64,000 bases of DNA from Fimbriimonadaceae bacterium. Its GTDB lineage: Bacteria > Armatimonadota > Fimbriimonadia > Fimbriimonadales > Fimbriimonadaceae. How positions within the stretch are numbered: position 1 is the first letter of the stretch; each line of letters begins with the position of its first letter. The DNA lies in assembly GCA_019454145.1 (NCBI GenBank), contig CP075366.1:225564-289563 (forward strand), in the 5' to 3' direction. The position numbers and the translations under genes were made by a program. This document shows positions 2,682 through 45,874 of this stretch, one piece after another. Under the pieces are notes generated by a model. The model saw only the letters and a program-made list of their open reading frames with translations. It did no database searches and was not told the DNA's origin.

Positions 2682-2765
2682 GATATGACCAGTGTTTAAA
2701 ATATGGATGCATGCAAATACATCGAGACTATATATTTAGCGGTAAATTGTGAGACCAAAAATGAG

Positions 2766-2790
2766 CAAACCCCGCCGAAAACGGCGAGGT
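2766..2790 (-). terminator. Probable intrinsic terminator downstream of the 2858-3013 ORF
   Basis: On minus strand ACCTCGCCG-TTTT-CGGCGGGGT followed by TTG. Confidence 0.55.
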
Positions 2791-2857
2791 CGCTACTCAA
2801 TTTGTGAAACGAATTGCGATTGCTCGCTCCTCGTTTCGTCGCAACAGTTCAATCCAC

Positions 2858-3013
2858 TCAGCCTGCGTTATTATCGCCGCCTTGCTTCATATGAGAACGA
2901 GTCTCTCTGTCGCGATTTAGTTGGTTCGGACTACAAGAGTCTTTCCCAAACTGTGGATTCTTCATCCCCTGATTGGTGCGAACGGCACGAATGCTATTTG
3001 CGTTTCCTTTCAT
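2858..3013 (-). CDS. Small hydrophilic 51-aa protein (MKGNANSIRAVRTNQGMKNPQFGKDSCSPNQLNRDRETRSHMKQGGDNNAG), not in ORF track
   Basis: Translated by hand; strong AAGGAGG Shine-Dalgarno upstream of ATG and a hairpin terminator downstream. Confidence 0.65.
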   Translation of the reverse strand: MKGNANSIRAVRTNQGMKNPQFGKDSCSPNQLNRDRETRSHMKQGGDNNAG

Positions 3014-3171
3014 GGAAGATTTCCTCCTTGATCTGCCTTCTATTGGTTGGCTTCACACTTGTATTCTACGGCAGATTTAACGAGTTGTGTCTAAAGATTC
3101 TATTGAGATTTCCACACAGTGTGAATATCTCTGGAGTCTCCATGCGAGGCTGGTGTTTATCTCCCTCCCCA

Positions 3172-3644
3172 ATACTGGGGAGGGGTTTCCGGATTCTCTC
3201 CCCAAAGCTTGGGGAGAGATGTAAGAGAGGGGTTGGCAGCATCTGATTAAACCTTCAACCCCTCCCGATCGCTTCGCGACCACCCTCCCCGATCTTCGGG
3301 GCGGGAATTGGAGCATGGCTTCGCGTGGGGGCTTCCGGATTCTCTCCCCAAAGTTTGGGGAGAGATTAAGAGAGGGGTTGGTAGCATCTGCTTAAGCCTT
3401 CAACCCCTCCCGTCTGCTGTCGCATCCACCCTCCCCGATCTTCAGGGCGGGAATCGGAGCATGGATTCGCGCGGGGGCTTCCGGATTCTCTCCCCAAAGT
3501 TTGGGGAGAGATTAAGAGAGGGGTTGGTATTCCCGTGTCTATTCAACCCCTCCCGTCTGCTGGCGCATCCACCCTCCCCGATCTTCGGGGCGGGAATAAA
3601 GGGAAACAACCCCACCCAACCCTCCCCAAGCTTGGGGAGGGAAA
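3172..3644. repeat. REP-like palindrome cluster (family A): three ~146-bp tandem units with flanking single hairpins
   Basis: Units start TTCCGGATTCTCTCCCCAAAG at 3187, 3333 and 3479; each has TCTCTCCCCAA-n3-TTGGGGAGAGA and CCCTCCCCGATCTTCGGGGCGGG hairpins. Confidence 0.9.
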
Positions 3645-3697
3645 CTTACTTTGCCTGCTTCCGAGAATGCAGGAGGAGGTTTTGTCAACTCTTGTTA

Positions 3698-3722
3698 GGG
3701 TGGCACTGGTTTCTAACCAGTG
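3698..3722. repeat. REP-like palindrome family B copy
   Basis: GGGTGGCACTGGTTTCTAACCAGTG, matching the GGGTGGCACGGGTT..AACCCGTG copies at ~37494 and ~37596. Confidence 0.65.
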
Positions 3723-3889
3723 TAAAGCGCGGCTTTTGCTCCCCGATCCTTGAGGCAGGAATCAAACAATAGAAACCCCCTGACCTGCTATTAGGAGGAG
3801 GCTCAGGGGGGCTGAGGACACTAAAATGAACTTGCCCCGAGGCTAGGGAAGGATTCCTAAACACGGGGCAGAGGGTTCACAACCAATCG

Positions 3890-17997: not shown

Positions 17998-18256
17998 AGA
18001 GTTGACTGGATTGTTGCAGTGGGGCGCGGCAATCTCGCTGTTGCTTGCTGTGAGTTGGGTTTTCCGTTTCAAAAAAGAGCCAGTGAGAGCCAAATTGATG
18101 GGGTTCGCTTTTGTTGTTCTCGCGATTGCGATGATCGGGTTCTCGCTAGAATGGCCCATTTGGATTGTCGGAGTATTGGCAGGTGTGGTCGTGGCAACCC
18201 AAATTTTTGACTTTGCGATGCGAGCGGGTCAGAAAGCAAAGGCGGAAGAGCCTTGA
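17987..18256 (+). CDS. Small membrane protein (3 TM)
   Basis: Three hydrophobic helices; overlaps both neighbours in operon fashion. Confidence 0.7.
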   Translation: MDIKELTGLLQWGAAISLLLAVSWVFRFKKEPVRAKLMGFAFVVLAIAMIGFSLEWPIWIVGVLAGVVVATQIFDFAMRAGQKAKAEEP

Positions 18257-19599
18257 AGATTGGAGTCGTGGGCGCAGGAATCGCTGGCCTGAGAACTGCG
18301 ATGCTTTTAGAGAAAGCGGGGCACCAAGTCACGGTTTTTGAAGCACGCGACCGCGTCGGCGGACGAATGCAAACCGTCGAGATGGGAGATGGATACTACG
18401 AGGCAGGCGGCGAATGGATTGACGCAGATCATCACCGAGTTATTCGTTTGCTCCGGGAGTTTGGAGTTGCTCCGGAAAAGAGTTCGCAATGGCCGGGGTT
18501 AGTGGTTTATCAAGGCGAGTTCGCGACGGAAAATCAGATCTGGCCCGATGCAGCACTGGATGCAGACTTGGTTCATGAGGCGGCAGAAGCTTTAATTACG
18601 AAACAACGGCGGGGAGAGGATATTGGAGAGGATCAACCTCTTGGGGCTTGGCTTGATTCGATCTGCAAGAGTGAACGCGGTCGCTGGTGGGTGGAGGCTT
18701 TCACGCGAAGTGATGAAGGCGAAGATACTTCCCAAGTCAGCTTGCTTGGTTGGCTCGAAAGCTACGCACACTATCTTGACCGTGAAGACGGCGTAATGAG
18801 CCTCTACCGTATCACTGGCGGGGGAGGAAAACTTTGCGAACGTATGGCGGCAAAACTACAGGATTTGAGGCTAAACTCGCCGATCCAACACGTTTCCGAT
18901 CAAGGGGAGGTAATTGATAAAAATGGTTCGACTCATCTTTTTGACCGAGTCGTTTTTGCATTACCTGCTGGCTGTTTAGAAAAGGTTCTCGACGTCGAAT
19001 CCCAAATTTCTCTTAAGCCGCAGGAAGGTAGTTTTGTTTCGTATGATCTCTCCTGGGTTTTCCATCTCCCCTCAGTGAAAATGGCTCGTTCAGTAAAGCT
19101 CGTTCTACAGTTCAAGAATGCTTGGTGGCGCGATAAGAACTGGTCGGGTCGGATGTTGGGTGATCTTGCGTTTCAGCAAACTTGGGAAATTGGACGGGGA
19201 AATCTTAATGCACTCGGAGTCTACGTTTGCGGGGCTGAAGCGATTCAGCTTATGGAGCAACCTAACCCAGTTGATGTGGTTTTGAAGTCAATTACGCAGG
19301 TGCATCCCGAGGCTCGAGAATCATTTATATCTGGTGCGGTCCATGATTGGGTTTCGGATGAATTTGCAGGTGGAGCGTTTCCGTATTATCCAGTTAAATG
19401 TGCACCATCCATGGATAAACCCCTCCCCAACCCCTCCCCAGATTTGGGGAGGGAGTCAAAAATCAACAGCACCAGGTTTAAGCCGTACGGGAGAATTCAC
19501 TTCGCTGGAGACTGGGCGTGTGATTGGATGGGATTTATTGAAGGCGCGCTCGAAAGCGCAGAACGTGTAGTAGAGGAGATCAAAAATGCTGGTGAGTGA
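18253..19599 (+). CDS. Flavin monoamine oxidase family protein
   Basis: GAGIAG Rossmann motif, EARDRVGGR, GGEWI, IHFAGD, GFIEGALESA. Confidence 0.9.
   Translation: MKIGVVGAGIAGLRTAMLLEKAGHQVTVFEARDRVGGRMQTVEMGDGYYEAGGEWIDADHHRVIRLLREFGVAPEKSSQWPGLVVYQGEFATENQIWPDAALDADLVHEAAEALITKQRRGEDIGEDQPLGAWLDSICKSERGRWWVEAFTRSDEGEDTSQVSLLGWLESYAHYLDREDGVMSLYRITGGGGKLCERMAAKLQDLRLNSPIQHVSDQGEVIDKNGSTHLFDRVVFALPAGCLEKVLDVESQISLKPQEGSFVSYDLSWVFHLPSVKMARSVKLVLQFKNAWWRDKNWSGRMLGDLAFQQTWEIGRGNLNALGVYVCGAEAIQLMEQPNPVDVVLKSITQVHPEARESFISGAVHDWVSDEFAGGAFPYYPVKCAPSMDKPLPNPSPDLGRESKINSTRFKPYGRIHFAGDWACDWMGFIEGALESAERVVEEIKNAGE
19418..19455. repeat. Family A REP-like element inside the amine oxidase CDS
   Basis: AACCCCTCCCCAACCCCTCCCCAGATTTGGGGAGGGAG matches intergenic copies at 3608, 26847, 37440. 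Confidence 0.85.
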
Positions 19600-21070
19600 T
19601 GCAAAAGTTTGGCCCGGCGATGTGACCGGGTTTGCGGTTGAAAATGGGCGATTCAGCCAAGTCGGGGGCGACCTAAAGGGCGGTGAATGGGCGGGGCATA
19701 CGATTCTTCCCGGTTTCATCGATGCGCATTGCCACATTCTGCCGACCGGCCTTGATCTGCTCAAACTCAACTTGAGCAGTTGCTGGACAGAGAACGAAGT
19801 TTTGGATGCGGTTCGAGATTGGTTGCCTAATATCGAACCAGGGCAATGGCTCCACGCGACTCAGTACGATCAGAACCGCTGGGGTTCGCATCTCAGCCGC
19901 CATCAACTTGATAAGGTTTCTAACGAAATTCCGATTTTGCTTCGGCATTCAAATGGTCATGCCAGCGTAGCCAACACAGCGGCATTGCGAGCGGCAGGAG
20001 TCGAACACGAAACTCCGGATATGGAAGGCGGTGAGTATGTCCGCGATGAAAACGGTGAACTCACTGGGGTTCTCCTAGAAAAAGCCCACGAACGAGTAAC
20101 GAGCAAGGCTCCCGAGCCAAGCCTAGATGAAATGGTTGCGGGGATCCTCCGCGCTGGAGAATCTATGGCGGGCTACGGAATCACCAGCGCGACCGACATG
20201 ATGACCGGGCGTTGGGACTTGGCAAAAGAACTTGAGGCTTACCGATTAGCAAGTGAGCAAGGCTGCAAGATTCGACTGCGGATGTATATGCAGTGGCGCG
20301 AAGTTCTGGGGAATGGCGCGATTGAACCTGCTTTGTTGCAAGAATTGATATCGGCGATGGATGAACCCAAGTGCAAGGTGCTCGGGCTCAAAGTATTTGC
20401 CGATGGAGCAATCGGGAGCGCAACCGCCGCGATTTACGACCGATTCGTGACCACGGGTGGGCAAGGCCGGCTGATATATTCACCCGAAAAACTCGCGCAG
20501 ATCATCGCCGATATTGATGCCGCAGGTTGGCGGTGTTCTGTGCACACTATCGGCGACCGATCTACTGACTTGGTGATGGAAGCGTATGAAAAGACCCGCG
20601 ATCCAAAGATTCACCGGATTGAGCACGCAATGATTTTGAGCGACACCCAAATTGAACGCATGGCAAAACTGGGTTCGCATGTGACTATGCAGCCAGAGTT
20701 CTTGTATCGGTTTGGTCATGCATACCGAGCGCAGTTGCCGGATGGCATTTGGCAGAACCTCAAAAGGGTACGGAGTGTTTTGGATGCGGGGATTTCTCTT
20801 TCGTTTAACTCAGATCGTCCAATTGTTGCCGGCGATCCTTGGGACGGGATTCGTTCGGCAACCAATCGACCGGAAGGATTTACTTCGGTGGAAGCGGTTT
20901 CGATTGAAGAGGGGATTGACCTCTACACTCGCGGCGGAGCCGTAGCGAATTTTGAAGATGATGAGCTCGGGATGATTGAGGTCGGATATCGGGCAGACTT
21001 TCAGGTTCGTAAAGGAGGAACCGACGGGGAGCTTGTTGCGGTTTACAAAGAAGAGGAGAGAACAATTTAG
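19586..21070 (+). CDS. Amidohydrolase family 3 (YtcJ-like)
   Basis: GFIDAHCH, KVFADGAIGS, HTIGD, RIEHA, SDRP. Confidence 0.9.
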   Translation: MLVSDAKVWPGDVTGFAVENGRFSQVGGDLKGGEWAGHTILPGFIDAHCHILPTGLDLLKLNLSSCWTENEVLDAVRDWLPNIEPGQWLHATQYDQNRWGSHLSRHQLDKVSNEIPILLRHSNGHASVANTAALRAAGVEHETPDMEGGEYVRDENGELTGVLLEKAHERVTSKAPEPSLDEMVAGILRAGESMAGYGITSATDMMTGRWDLAKELEAYRLASEQGCKIRLRMYMQWREVLGNGAIEPALLQELISAMDEPKCKVLGLKVFADGAIGSATAAIYDRFVTTGGQGRLIYSPEKLAQIIADIDAAGWRCSVHTIGDRSTDLVMEAYEKTRDPKIHRIEHAMILSDTQIERMAKLGSHVTMQPEFLYRFGHAYRAQLPDGIWQNLKRVRSVLDAGISLSFNSDRPIVAGDPWDGIRSATNRPEGFTSVEAVSIEEGIDLYTRGGAVANFEDDELGMIEVGYRADFQVRKGGTDGELVAVYKEEERTI

Positions 21071-21570: not shown

Positions 21571-21954
21571 ATGAAAGCCAAATATTTTGTTCAAGCGGGC
21601 ATTGCTCTCGTGGTTTTGCCGATACCCACGCTGATGCTCTATAACCATATAGGAACTCAGGCAGTGATCGATTCTGAAATGTGCTGGCAAAATCGCGCTC
21701 CAAGTACCGAGATTGAGTTTTCTGAGCTTAAGAAAGTTGCCAAAAAATGTGGTCTCAATGAAAGAGAGGAAGGAGCCAGGGAATATCCAGACGGGATCAG
21801 GAGAACATATTTTAGTCGCAGGTTCACAGATTTCCAGATCGTTGTGGGTTGGCATCGTGAATATTTGCTTGACGTTGAGTTCACAGGTAATACCGAAAAA
21901 GTTAAATGTAAGGGAATGCGGAATGACGGGGTCGCCTGGCTGTTAATTCCTTAA
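21571..21954 (+). CDS. Hypothetical exported or membrane-anchored protein, paralogue 2
   Basis: Same motifs as 21177-21557. Confidence 0.75.
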   Translation: MKAKYFVQAGIALVVLPIPTLMLYNHIGTQAVIDSEMCWQNRAPSTEIEFSELKKVAKKCGLNEREEGAREYPDGIRRTYFSRRFTDFQIVVGWHREYLLDVEFTGNTEKVKCKGMRNDGVAWLLIP

Positions 21955-21990
21955 AGAATCCCCGCTCAGATTTGAGCGGGGATTCTTTTT
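21953..21990. terminator. Bidirectional intrinsic terminator
   Basis: AAAGAATCCCCGCTCA-GATT-TGAGCGGGGATTCTTT between convergent genes. Confidence 0.85.
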
Positions 21991-26821: not shown

Positions 26822-26846
26822 TCTTGGTAACCTTTACAACTTGATT

Positions 26847-26884
26847 AACCCCTACCAACCCTCCCCAGAATTGGGGAGGGAATT
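26847..26884. repeat. Family A REP-like element between htpX and rpoB
   Basis: AACCCCTACCAACCCTCCCCAGAATTGGGGAGGGAATT. Confidence 0.85.
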
Positions 26885-27002
26885 CTCATTTTTTGTTGAC
26901 GAGGGTTCGCTTCTGCAAAGGGCCTAGTTGAACTCAAAACGGCCCAATTTCCACCCGGGGTTGCAGGTATGATTTTCCTTCCCCGATTCTGTCCGGAGAA
27001 TT

Positions 27003-31037: not shown

Positions 31038-31072
31038 AAATGGCCGATCCTAAAAAGGGTCGGCCATTTTTT
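31038..31072. terminator. Bidirectional terminator after rpoB, overlapping the pnuC stop
   Basis: AAATGGCCGATCC-TAAAA-AGGGTCGGCCATTTTTT. Confidence 0.85.
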
Positions 31073-37104: not shown

Positions 37105-37122
37105 GTTTAACTCCTTCTTTTT

Positions 37123-37680
37123 ATTCCTCCCCAGAATTGGGGACGAGACTCCGAGACTATTGGTTTGGCATCTCCCCACAAAGGTTGGGGGGAGATTGAG
37201 AGAGGGGTTGAAAGCCTGCCGATTGCCAGCTCAACCCCTCCCACTCCGATCAATCGGAGCACCCTCCCCGATCTTCGGGGCGGGAATTTAAGAGTCTAAT
37301 ACGGGTGCTGGAGTAAGCCTAGGAAGCACGTCTAATTAACTGATTTGCTTTCATCTGATTCTGTTGGAATTGAGTTCTCCTCCCAAGTTTGGGAGGAGAT
37401 AAAGAGGTGGGTTGTTGCTAGGTAAAGGAATTGCTGATCAACCCCGCCCTGCCCTCCCCAGGCTTGGGGAGGGAATTCAAACGGTAGACACTGGGTGGCA
37501 CGGGTTTTTCAACCCGTGGGCTAGCAGAAATAAACAGCTCAACCCCACCCTAAACCTTCCCACGCTTGGGGAGGGAATTCAAACCACCAAGTTTGGGTGG
37601 CACGGGTTTCAAACCCGTGGGCTAGGTAAAGGAATTGCAGGTCAACCCCGCCCTGCCCTCCCCAGGCTTGGGGAGGGAAA
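37123..37680. repeat. BIME-like mosaic of family A and family B REP-like palindromes
   Basis: Copy of the 146-bp unit core at 37171-37288; A-B-A-B-A array with GCTAG at 37417, 37520, 37621. Confidence 0.88.
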
Positions 37681-37686
37681 CCAGAC

Positions 37687-38121
37687 TCACTTCTTCGTCA
37701 ATTCAGTATCAATCGCATCCGAGAGCTTTTTAAAGCTCGAAACAACCCGCACGGCGTAGCGGTCTTCTTCTACCCGGATGATGTTCACCTCGATCAAAGC
37801 CGACTCGTTATCCATTGTTGCGAGCATTTCTCCTTGAAGACGGTCGTTTTTGGAAAGTAGGGAAGCGGCGGTCAGGGTTTCTTTGATGTAAGCATCCGAC
37901 CACTTATTGTGCTTATCAAAGGTAGCGATCGCGCGGAGTTTTGCCCCGAGTTGCGCCATCGGCACGATGATCTCGGCGATAAAAGTGTTGGACTTATCCA
38001 ATTCCACCGGAGCAGGTGCGGCTTGTACGTCAGAAGTTGGCTCGGGCTTTGGCGGACTGGAGATCGTGCATCCGCCAAGAACCACCAGAATCAAGACTGC
38101 CATCCAGTAACGTGCCATCAA
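37687..38121 (-). CDS. Hypothetical lipoprotein
   Basis: Signal peptide with LGGC lipobox. Confidence 0.7.
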   Translation of the reverse strand: MMARYWMAVLILVVLGGCTISSPPKPEPTSDVQAAPAPVELDKSNTFIAEIIVPMAQLGAKLRAIATFDKHNKWSDAYIKETLTAASLLSKNDRLQGEMLATMDNESALIEVNIIRVEEDRYAVRVVSSFKKLSDAIDTELTKK

Positions 38122-44626: not shown

Positions 44627-44663
44627 AACTGCCCTTGATCACATTCTGTGATCAAGGGCAGTT
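44627..44663. terminator. Bidirectional terminator, perfect 17-bp stem
   Basis: AACTGCCCTTGATCACA-TTC-TGTGATCAAGGGCAGTT between convergent genes. Confidence 0.85.
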
Positions 44664-45758: not shown

Positions 45759-45874
45759 ATTCAGATAATACAATTTTTACTTGGTTTATAGTTCCAAATA
45801 GTGTGATCGGTTAAAGAAATAGAATCAAATGCAACTGCATTTGATTCTATTGTTTCAAATTCAAGAATGAGCTT

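Follow-up and report, generated by a model that had tools for sequence, protein, structure and literature searches.

The window analysed here is a 64-kb stretch of DNA (positions 225,564-289,563 of contig CP075366.1, assembly GCA_019454145.1) from a Fimbriimonadaceae bacterium of the phylum Armatimonadota. On its plus strand, at 18253..19599, lies an intact open reading frame of 448 amino acids which we assign, from Pfam, an AlphaFold2 model, dN/dS and synteny, to the MAO-type flavin amine oxidases. The Pfam domain Amino_oxidase (PF01593) is matched over residues 10-443 and thus over the full length (E=3.6e-46). The AlphaFold2 model, built from 29 sequences, has a mean pLDDT of 87 and a pTM of 0.87, and a Foldseek search with it returns MAO-B and MAO-A, the closest solved relatives, at TM 0.82-0.83 and E ~1e-30. 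With a full-length domain match and the MAO fold, the gene product is a member of this family. An amidohydrolase gene (19586..21070, plus strand; PF07969, E=2e-76) overlaps the oxidase stop by 14 nt, and the gene order UbiA, two hypothetical genes, oxidase, amidohydrolase is conserved. As the same order is found in close relatives, we treat their oxidase genes as orthologues. Against these the dN/dS of the oxidase is 0.09-0.16, and the gene is thus under purifying selection.

Near its C-terminus the oxidase gene contains a REP-like element, complete in all its parts and belonging to a dispersed family. The copy spans 19417-19455 on the plus strand, with the sequence aaa ccc ctc ccc aac ccc tcc cca gat ttg ggg agg gag. 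These 39 nt are 13 codons in frame, residues K389-E401 (KPLPNPSPDLGRE), and the motifs GRIHFAGD and GFIEGALESAERV downstream of the insert are read in frame as well. A first-pass annotation, made from the letters of the sequence, had reported a REP palindrome at 19418-19455 within an amine oxidase gene whose frame it leaves unbroken. The gene, the frame and the end of the element agree with our results; its true start lies one base earlier, at 19417. The 5′ part of the element is a C-rich box (AACCCCTCCCC, 19418..19428), followed by a palindromic core (19432..19453) with the left arm CCCTCCCCA at 19432-19440, the loop GATT at 19441-19444 and the right arm TGGGGAGGG at 19445-19453, all on the plus strand. 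The core of the oxidase copy folds as RNA with -19.9 kcal/mol (z = -2.9). The 5′ C-rich box can also pair with the G-rich arm and so offers an alternative left arm; the centroid fold uses the distal arm. A scan of 19000-19800 for promoters and terminators returned nothing, and the oxidase hairpin is therefore not a terminator.

In the AlphaFold2 model the pLDDT falls below 50 in two places only, at residues 250-272 and at residues 389-406, the latter being the repeat-encoded peptide plus SKINS, and residues 381-411 have no regular secondary structure. The modelling of the loop, which the first-pass annotation had proposed as a check, thus puts the insert into a low-confidence segment of an otherwise confident model, and for this reason we take the proline-rich insert as a disordered loop. 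The other low-confidence segment (residues 250-272, about 19000-19070) is variable in length: it reads 'ISLKPQEGSFVSYDLSWVFHL' in the oxidases of the clade that carries the insert (clade A, see below), and relatives differ widely in length here.

The element belongs to a family with a common design, that is, a C-rich box AACCCCnCCC, conserved across all copies, and then a 9-bp GC-rich stem with a loop of 4 nt (CCCTCCCCA-nnnT-TGGGGAGGG). The unit amounts to about 35-39 nt in all, and the oxidase copy has every part of it. When the genic and intergenic copies of the window and of relatives are aligned, the consensus is GATCAACCCCnCCC-nA-nCCCTCCCCAGAnTTGGGGAGGGAAT. When the 64-kb window is searched with the 22-nt core CCCTCCCCAGATTTGGGGAGGG, nine strand matches are found at three or fewer mismatches, and none is expected from 100 dinucleotide-preserving shuffles of the window. 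The matches lie at 3163, 3620, 19432, 26859, 37452 and 37656, with a more diverged copy at 37554. A repeat finder groups the same elements (3608, 19420, 26847, 37440, 37541, 37644 and a reverse copy near 3158-3187). Thus the window holds seven copies, one genic and six intergenic, and a hairpin survey of the 64 kb shows the oxidase copy to be the only family member within a supported gene. The RNA hairpins reach about -19 to -24 kcal/mol, with z from -2.9 to -3.6 for the clean copies. In being short GC-rich imperfect palindromes (20-40 nt) which form a stem–loop, and in having many dispersed, mostly intergenic and clustered copies in the window, the elements resemble the REP class. The consensus GATCAACCCCnCCC..CCCTCCCCAGAnTTGGGGAGGGAAT shows neither a GTAG nor a CGTC tag beside the stem, although such a tag is a defining trait of the REP superfamilies described so far, and the whole window has no Rfam match at gathering threshold.

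All five intergenic copies of the first-pass annotation (3608, 26847, 37440, 37541 and 37644) were recovered, and a minus-strand copy was added to them. The copy at 3608..3643 (plus strand), found by core search, repeat finder and alignment, stands at the end of a repeat cluster. The additional copy at 3158..3187 (minus strand) is one without the 5′ box; it was detected as an inverted pair (37 nt at 84%) and resembles the genic copy beyond the palindrome. The copy at 26847..26882 (plus strand) lies between the gene for an M48 peptidase and rpoB and is conserved at the same site in the related genome L001. Here the whole rpoB leader is 94% identical (window 26822-27002 against L001 19423-19588; gene dS 0.5-1.3), so the conservation of this copy says nothing specific about the repeat; the leader region has no Rfam match. 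The copies at 37440..37475, 37541..37577 (diverged) and 37644..37679, all on the plus strand, are part of a 102-nt tandem array downstream of rpoC.

Two arrays are present, one with a composite unit of 146 nt repeated 2.9 times (3182-3597) and the other with the 102-nt unit repeated 2.6 times directly after rpoC (37417-37679). Both also contain other palindrome types. The 146-nt unit has at least three palindromes, namely TCTCTCCCCAAAGTTTGGGGAGAGA, CCCTCCCCGATCTTCGGGGCGGG and the long-range pair GAGAGGGGTTG / CAACCCCTCCC, and the array resembles a BIME-like mosaic. In the cluster after rpoC (37110-37680) the 102-nt unit couples the REP with another hairpin (GGCACGGGTTTcaAACCCGTGGGCTAG). The core is free of stop codons in all six frames. 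Copies can therefore be read through, and the intergenic arrays yield long spurious open reading frames: those at 2749..3246 and 3308..3772 (165 and 154 amino acids, no Pfam match), which run through the cluster at 3150-3770, are probably of this kind. No RAYT-type transposase was found by Pfam among the open reading frames beside or through both clusters of the window, and the open reading frame of 144 amino acids which flanks the cluster after rpoC (37687..38121, minus strand) has no Pfam match at all. Upstream of the first cluster an open reading frame of 414 amino acids (1437-2681) carries a STAND/AAA NTPase signature (nSTAND1, AAA_22). Four further hairpins of the window, at 21953-21988, 31038-31069, 44627-44663 and 45818-45851, have perfect stems of 14-17 bp, are richer in AT than the REPs and sit at gene ends; they are probably terminators and unrelated to the REP family.

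An alignment with orthologues reveals the empty site. The homologue search gave 620 homologues, mostly from Armatimonadota/Fimbriimonadaceae, and we used 80 genomic loci from GTDB species representatives together with several Logan, JGI and ENA contigs. The segment running from the conserved GAF to HFAG[DE] was readable in 76 of 86 loci. It is 30 amino acids long in 59 of these 76 loci and 27-30 amino acids long in 66, 43 amino acids long in L001/L002, L007 and L003, and 47 amino acids long in the window. The difference between 43 and 30 is 13 codons, exactly the length of the element, and taking the insert out restores a segment of 30 amino acids. The extra 39 nt are thus the repeat itself. 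The first-pass annotation had judged the linker to be 13-15 amino acids longer than usual, which fits these lengths, and it had named orthologues with the same loop in genomes lacking the repeat as the observation that would speak against an insertion; most homologues have the short segment, a result in favour of the finding. Like insertions of the RPE type, the repeat is thus in frame within the gene of a conserved protein, and orthologues show the empty site.

The three insert-bearing relatives have the element at the same place, as AAA CCC CTC CCC AGC CCC TCC CCA GAT TTG GG[G/C] AGG GAG. Their oxidases share 85% (L001/L002), 87% (L007, Fimbriimonadaceae ACE_ARM7) and 63-67% (L003) protein identity with that of the window, and in a neighbour-joining tree the four insert-bearing genes form one clade, clade A. 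The data are thus accounted for by one insertion event in the ancestor of these four. A scan of metagenome contigs for closer orthologues gave a best match of only 42% identity and no new members of clade A. Just 3′ of the insert the window has the codons K-I-N-S-T (19459..19473, plus strand) where the other clade-A genomes have one codon (G or E), so that the sequence here reads ESKINSTRFKPY in the window and ESGRFKPY or ESERFKRY in L007, L003 and L001. The lineage of the window alone has thus gained, on balance, four codons (12 nt), the exact boundaries of which are ambiguous. Two public DNA runs hold the insert region, identical to the window, and contain no variant without the insert. Logan contigs of two metagenomes, one from sludge and one from a biofilter, cover the region at 100% identity. 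Several Logan contigs stop at or near the repeat (19404, 19415 and 19433), which indicates that the repeat family fragments short-read assemblies.

Copies of the element are also found in frame in more distant relatives. In the sister clade (clade B), in the oxidases of L004-L006 (where the protein is P0007) and L008, the same element sits in the same loop, five residues further on and in the second frame, with the sequence GTA ACC CCG GCC CAA CCC CTC CCC AAA ATT GGG GAG GGA AAG, which encodes VTPAQPLPKIGEGK. The amidohydrolase of L004 has near its C-terminus a longer form in the third frame (TCA ACC CCG CCC GGC CCT TCG GGT CAC CCT CCC CAA ACT TGG GGA GGG AAA, encoding STPPGPSGHPPQTWGGK), after which the conserved PVAVYRAG follows in frame; this insert is absent in the window, L001, L003 and L090. 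The proposal of the first-pass annotation that the family creates new peptide loops is borne out by these copies. The locus L089 has other, perfect palindromes, again in frame, at both sites: the oxidase loop (L089 1968-1987) has CCCGGGAA-tcac-TTCCCGGG, and the C-terminal linker of the amidohydrolase (about L089 4190-4225) has CCCATCCCTC-cctagtgga-GAGGGATGGG. A further copy of the L089 oxidase-loop palindrome was not found in the fetched loci.

The same oxidase loop varies in length in the sister clade, from 32 to 52 amino acids. L087, L067 and L088 have long loops of non-REP sequence; a BLAST comparison of these loops with the repeat clusters gave no significant remnant of the element. Among these, the oxidase orthologue of L067 (Armatimonadetes bacterium Uphvl-Ar1, CP021423) is annotated as a protein of 344 amino acids (P0103) in which the similarity is lost midway. 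Its C-terminal part can be read in a different frame; the orthologue thus contains a frameshift and is either a pseudogene or the product of a sequencing error. Did the element enter the loop once or twice? Parsimony on the tree prefers two gains, in clade A and in the lineage of L004/L008, which require one loss or replacement in L087/L067; one gain requires at least four losses and a frame change. A single origin is favoured by the sequences of the window and L008 copies, which are identical at 34 of 37 positions and both 2 nt longer than every intergenic copy seen. On balance we lean slightly towards two events, with the two possibilities close to even.

The bases of the element are better conserved than the coding function appears to demand. 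Between the window and L003 the stretch K389-S402 is identical at 40 of 42 nt, at a dS of about 1.6-2.3. It is the best-conserved stretch of 14 codons of the oxidase, the mean of the gene being 28.6 of 42 and the gene-wide nucleotide identity 67.5%. At 12 of the 13 identical residues the same codon is used, and 4.7 would be expected (Poisson-binomial P ~1e-5) with codon-specific retention rates taken from seven syntenic genes; the test rests on few lineages, namely the four clade-A sequences. The copies of L004 and L008 (dS 1.18) behave alike: 15 of 16 third positions are identical, against 54.5% elsewhere (p = 0.001), and four of the five changes are non-synonymous. Substitution within the element thus departs from the codon-phase pattern of its surroundings, and the bases themselves appear to be constrained. 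It therefore seems that the palindrome is constrained as DNA or RNA, and not as a peptide alone. The cause may be selection on a hairpin or on a site where a protein binds, homogenisation through conversion, or selection on the peptide; the last fits the synonymous data worst.

We suggest that the insert is, very probably, a non-coding REP-like repeat which entered the loop of the oxidase gene as 39 nt and is tolerated as a translated, disordered peptide. On this reading the MAO-type oxidase gained one copy, 39 nt to the base, in a loop close to its C-terminus, and the gain dates to the ancestor which the window genome shares with its three sequenced relatives. The copy is tolerated because its core is free of stop codons in six frames and because it landed in a hypervariable, permissive loop. 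It is translated as a proline-rich, disordered loop of 13 residues in an enzyme which is kept under purifying selection, and for which the loop is presumably neutral. The data themselves show that the insert is a member of the repeat family, that the site is empty elsewhere, that the frame is unbroken, how old the insertion is and that relatives have further in-frame copies.

Whether the inserted DNA also does something of its own is another matter. It is possible, and we put it forward tentatively, that purifying selection acts on the repeat in its own right, as a nucleic-acid element within the coding sequence. It could act as an mRNA hairpin, or as a DNA site for a protein that recognises the repeat, and could affect decay, processing or expression within the oxidase-amidohydrolase operon. 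The synonymous-site data given above point in this direction. The change of GGG to GGC in the stem of L003 breaks a pair without compensation, so that selection for the hairpin as such is no more than a possibility; in RNA, a C to T change in L008 would leave a G-U pair. In a related reading, the repeat family would truly prefer particular loops, as two sites are hit repeatedly.

The same conservation could arise through homogenisation without any selection, by gene conversion from other copies of the family or by self-templated repair of the palindrome. The genic copies are near the family consensus, and the close match between the window and L008 copies occurs in genes whose proteins share only about 63% identity. 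Private to the oxidase copies, however, and common to all four clade-A genomes, are the loop triplet GAT and the spacer longer by 2 nt, and conversion from intergenic donors should have wiped them out. We therefore hold homogenisation to be unlikely. Somewhat more doubtful still is an exapted peptide, in which KPLP(N/S)PSPDLGRES would be kept for a role in, for example, protein contact or localisation and the conservation of the DNA would be a by-product. In its favour, the window and L003 agree in 13 of 14 residues, whereas the flanking residues of the loop differ (VKCAPSMD against VGYAPNPD before the insert and SKINSTRF against SGRF after it). However, selection on the peptide leaves the identical synonymous codons unexplained, the REP of L004 and L008 keeps its third positions while four of its five changes are non-synonymous, and the segment is predicted to be disordered.

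It is very improbable that we see a pseudogene in decay, with the repeat in dead DNA which is still open. The oxidase does evolve faster than its syntenic neighbours (the genes for amidohydrolase, tricorn protease, M48 peptidase and PRK), with 63-67% against 87-94% protein identity to L003 and an omega of about 0.14 against about 0.03, and the Uphvl-Ar1 orthologue is annotated as a truncated product. All four clade-A genomes nevertheless have an unbroken reading frame, omega is clearly below 1, all motifs of the family are present and the AlphaFold2 model is confident. An ordinary low-complexity linker rich in proline and glycine that happens to be palindromic, conceivable in that an element first C-rich and then G-rich naturally encodes Pro and Gly, is rejected as next to impossible, since the core search has a chance expectation of 0, the match extends into the 5′ box and the extra length of the segment equals the length of the element.

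How does the family compare with known repeats? Classical enterobacterial REPs are extragenic, GTAG-tagged and accompanied by RAYT transposases. The present family is like classical REPs and BIMEs in its size, its design as an imperfect palindrome, its intergenic arrays of mixed units (3182-3597 and 37417-37679) and its location after genes; unlike them, it has a genic copy, no GTAG tag and no RAYT gene seen in the window. MITEs are 70-300 bp long and have terminal inverted repeats and a target-site duplication. A MITE was considered and rejected, as the insert has 39 nt and no direct repeat flanks it in any of the four clade-A genomes. With no evident target-site duplication and no RAYT gene beside the clusters, neither transposition nor recombination has support as the mechanism of insertion.

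Intragenic REPs have been described before. Di Nocera, De Gregorio and Rocco (2013, PMC3733652) treat GTAG/CGTC-tagged REPs as GC-rich stem–loops of 20-40 nt which are mostly intergenic and often clustered; some lie wholly inside the reading frames of known proteins and are read through. The examples in the portions of this article considered here come from several phyla and include 'O. terrae' (Opitutus), Thauera and R. conorii (RPE-4, RPE-6), with most cases in 'O. terrae' and R. conorii, and the authors propose there that intragenic REPs are neutral, being placed in flexible linkers or loops. In contrast to those REPs, the present family carries neither tag, has a separate C-rich 5′ box and is hosted by Armatimonadota. 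Synonymous-site conservation and repeated hits on the same loop are features of our case which these portions of PMC3733652 do not mention.

The Rickettsia RPE-1 elements (Ogata et al. 2000, cited in PMC3184786 and, in the portions considered, in PMC3733652) are selfish palindromes inserted in frame in functional genes, to which they add a peptide segment. The oxidase insert is like RPE-1 in being an in-frame palindrome which leaves the gene intact and adds an extra peptide segment. RPEs are about 105-146 bp long (Delihas 2011, PMC3184786), roughly three times the 39 nt (13 amino acids) of the element here, and the host lineages are unrelated; the comparison is one of size. Delihas (2011) further lists BRE of Bordetella, RUP/SPRITE of pneumococcus and the enterobacterial RU elements as fused to or inside open reading frames. 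With these our family shares that small repeats, open in some frames, extend or interrupt coding sequence; the elements in the table of PMC3184786 are ~100 bp or more, and several of their insertions disrupt genes rather than being read through. The statement of the first-pass annotation that coding palindromic insertions are known mainly from Rickettsia is thus too narrow, given the several phyla in the cited portions of PMC3733652 and the further cases in PMC3184786. A literature search found no description of such repeats in Armatimonadota.

The kind of event is therefore already known; what is new here is the repeat family and the phylum. A practical consequence follows from the stop-free clusters, which give long spurious open reading frames, and from the contigs that break at the repeat: annotators should mask this family in these genomes. 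In the oxidase a selfish palindromic repeat has become a permanent part of an enzyme, with a clean empty site, dated by orthologues and in a barely studied phylum. Two aspects make this more than one further example. A single family is read in all three forward frames across different proteins, and synonymous sites in its coding copies are better conserved than those of the surrounding genes. If the synonymous conservation reflects function, the oxidase would be a tractable case of overlapping constraints on protein and nucleic acid. Should the repeat indeed be under its own selection, 39 bases would carry two codes simultaneously, and this double use would date back to before dS ~1.6.
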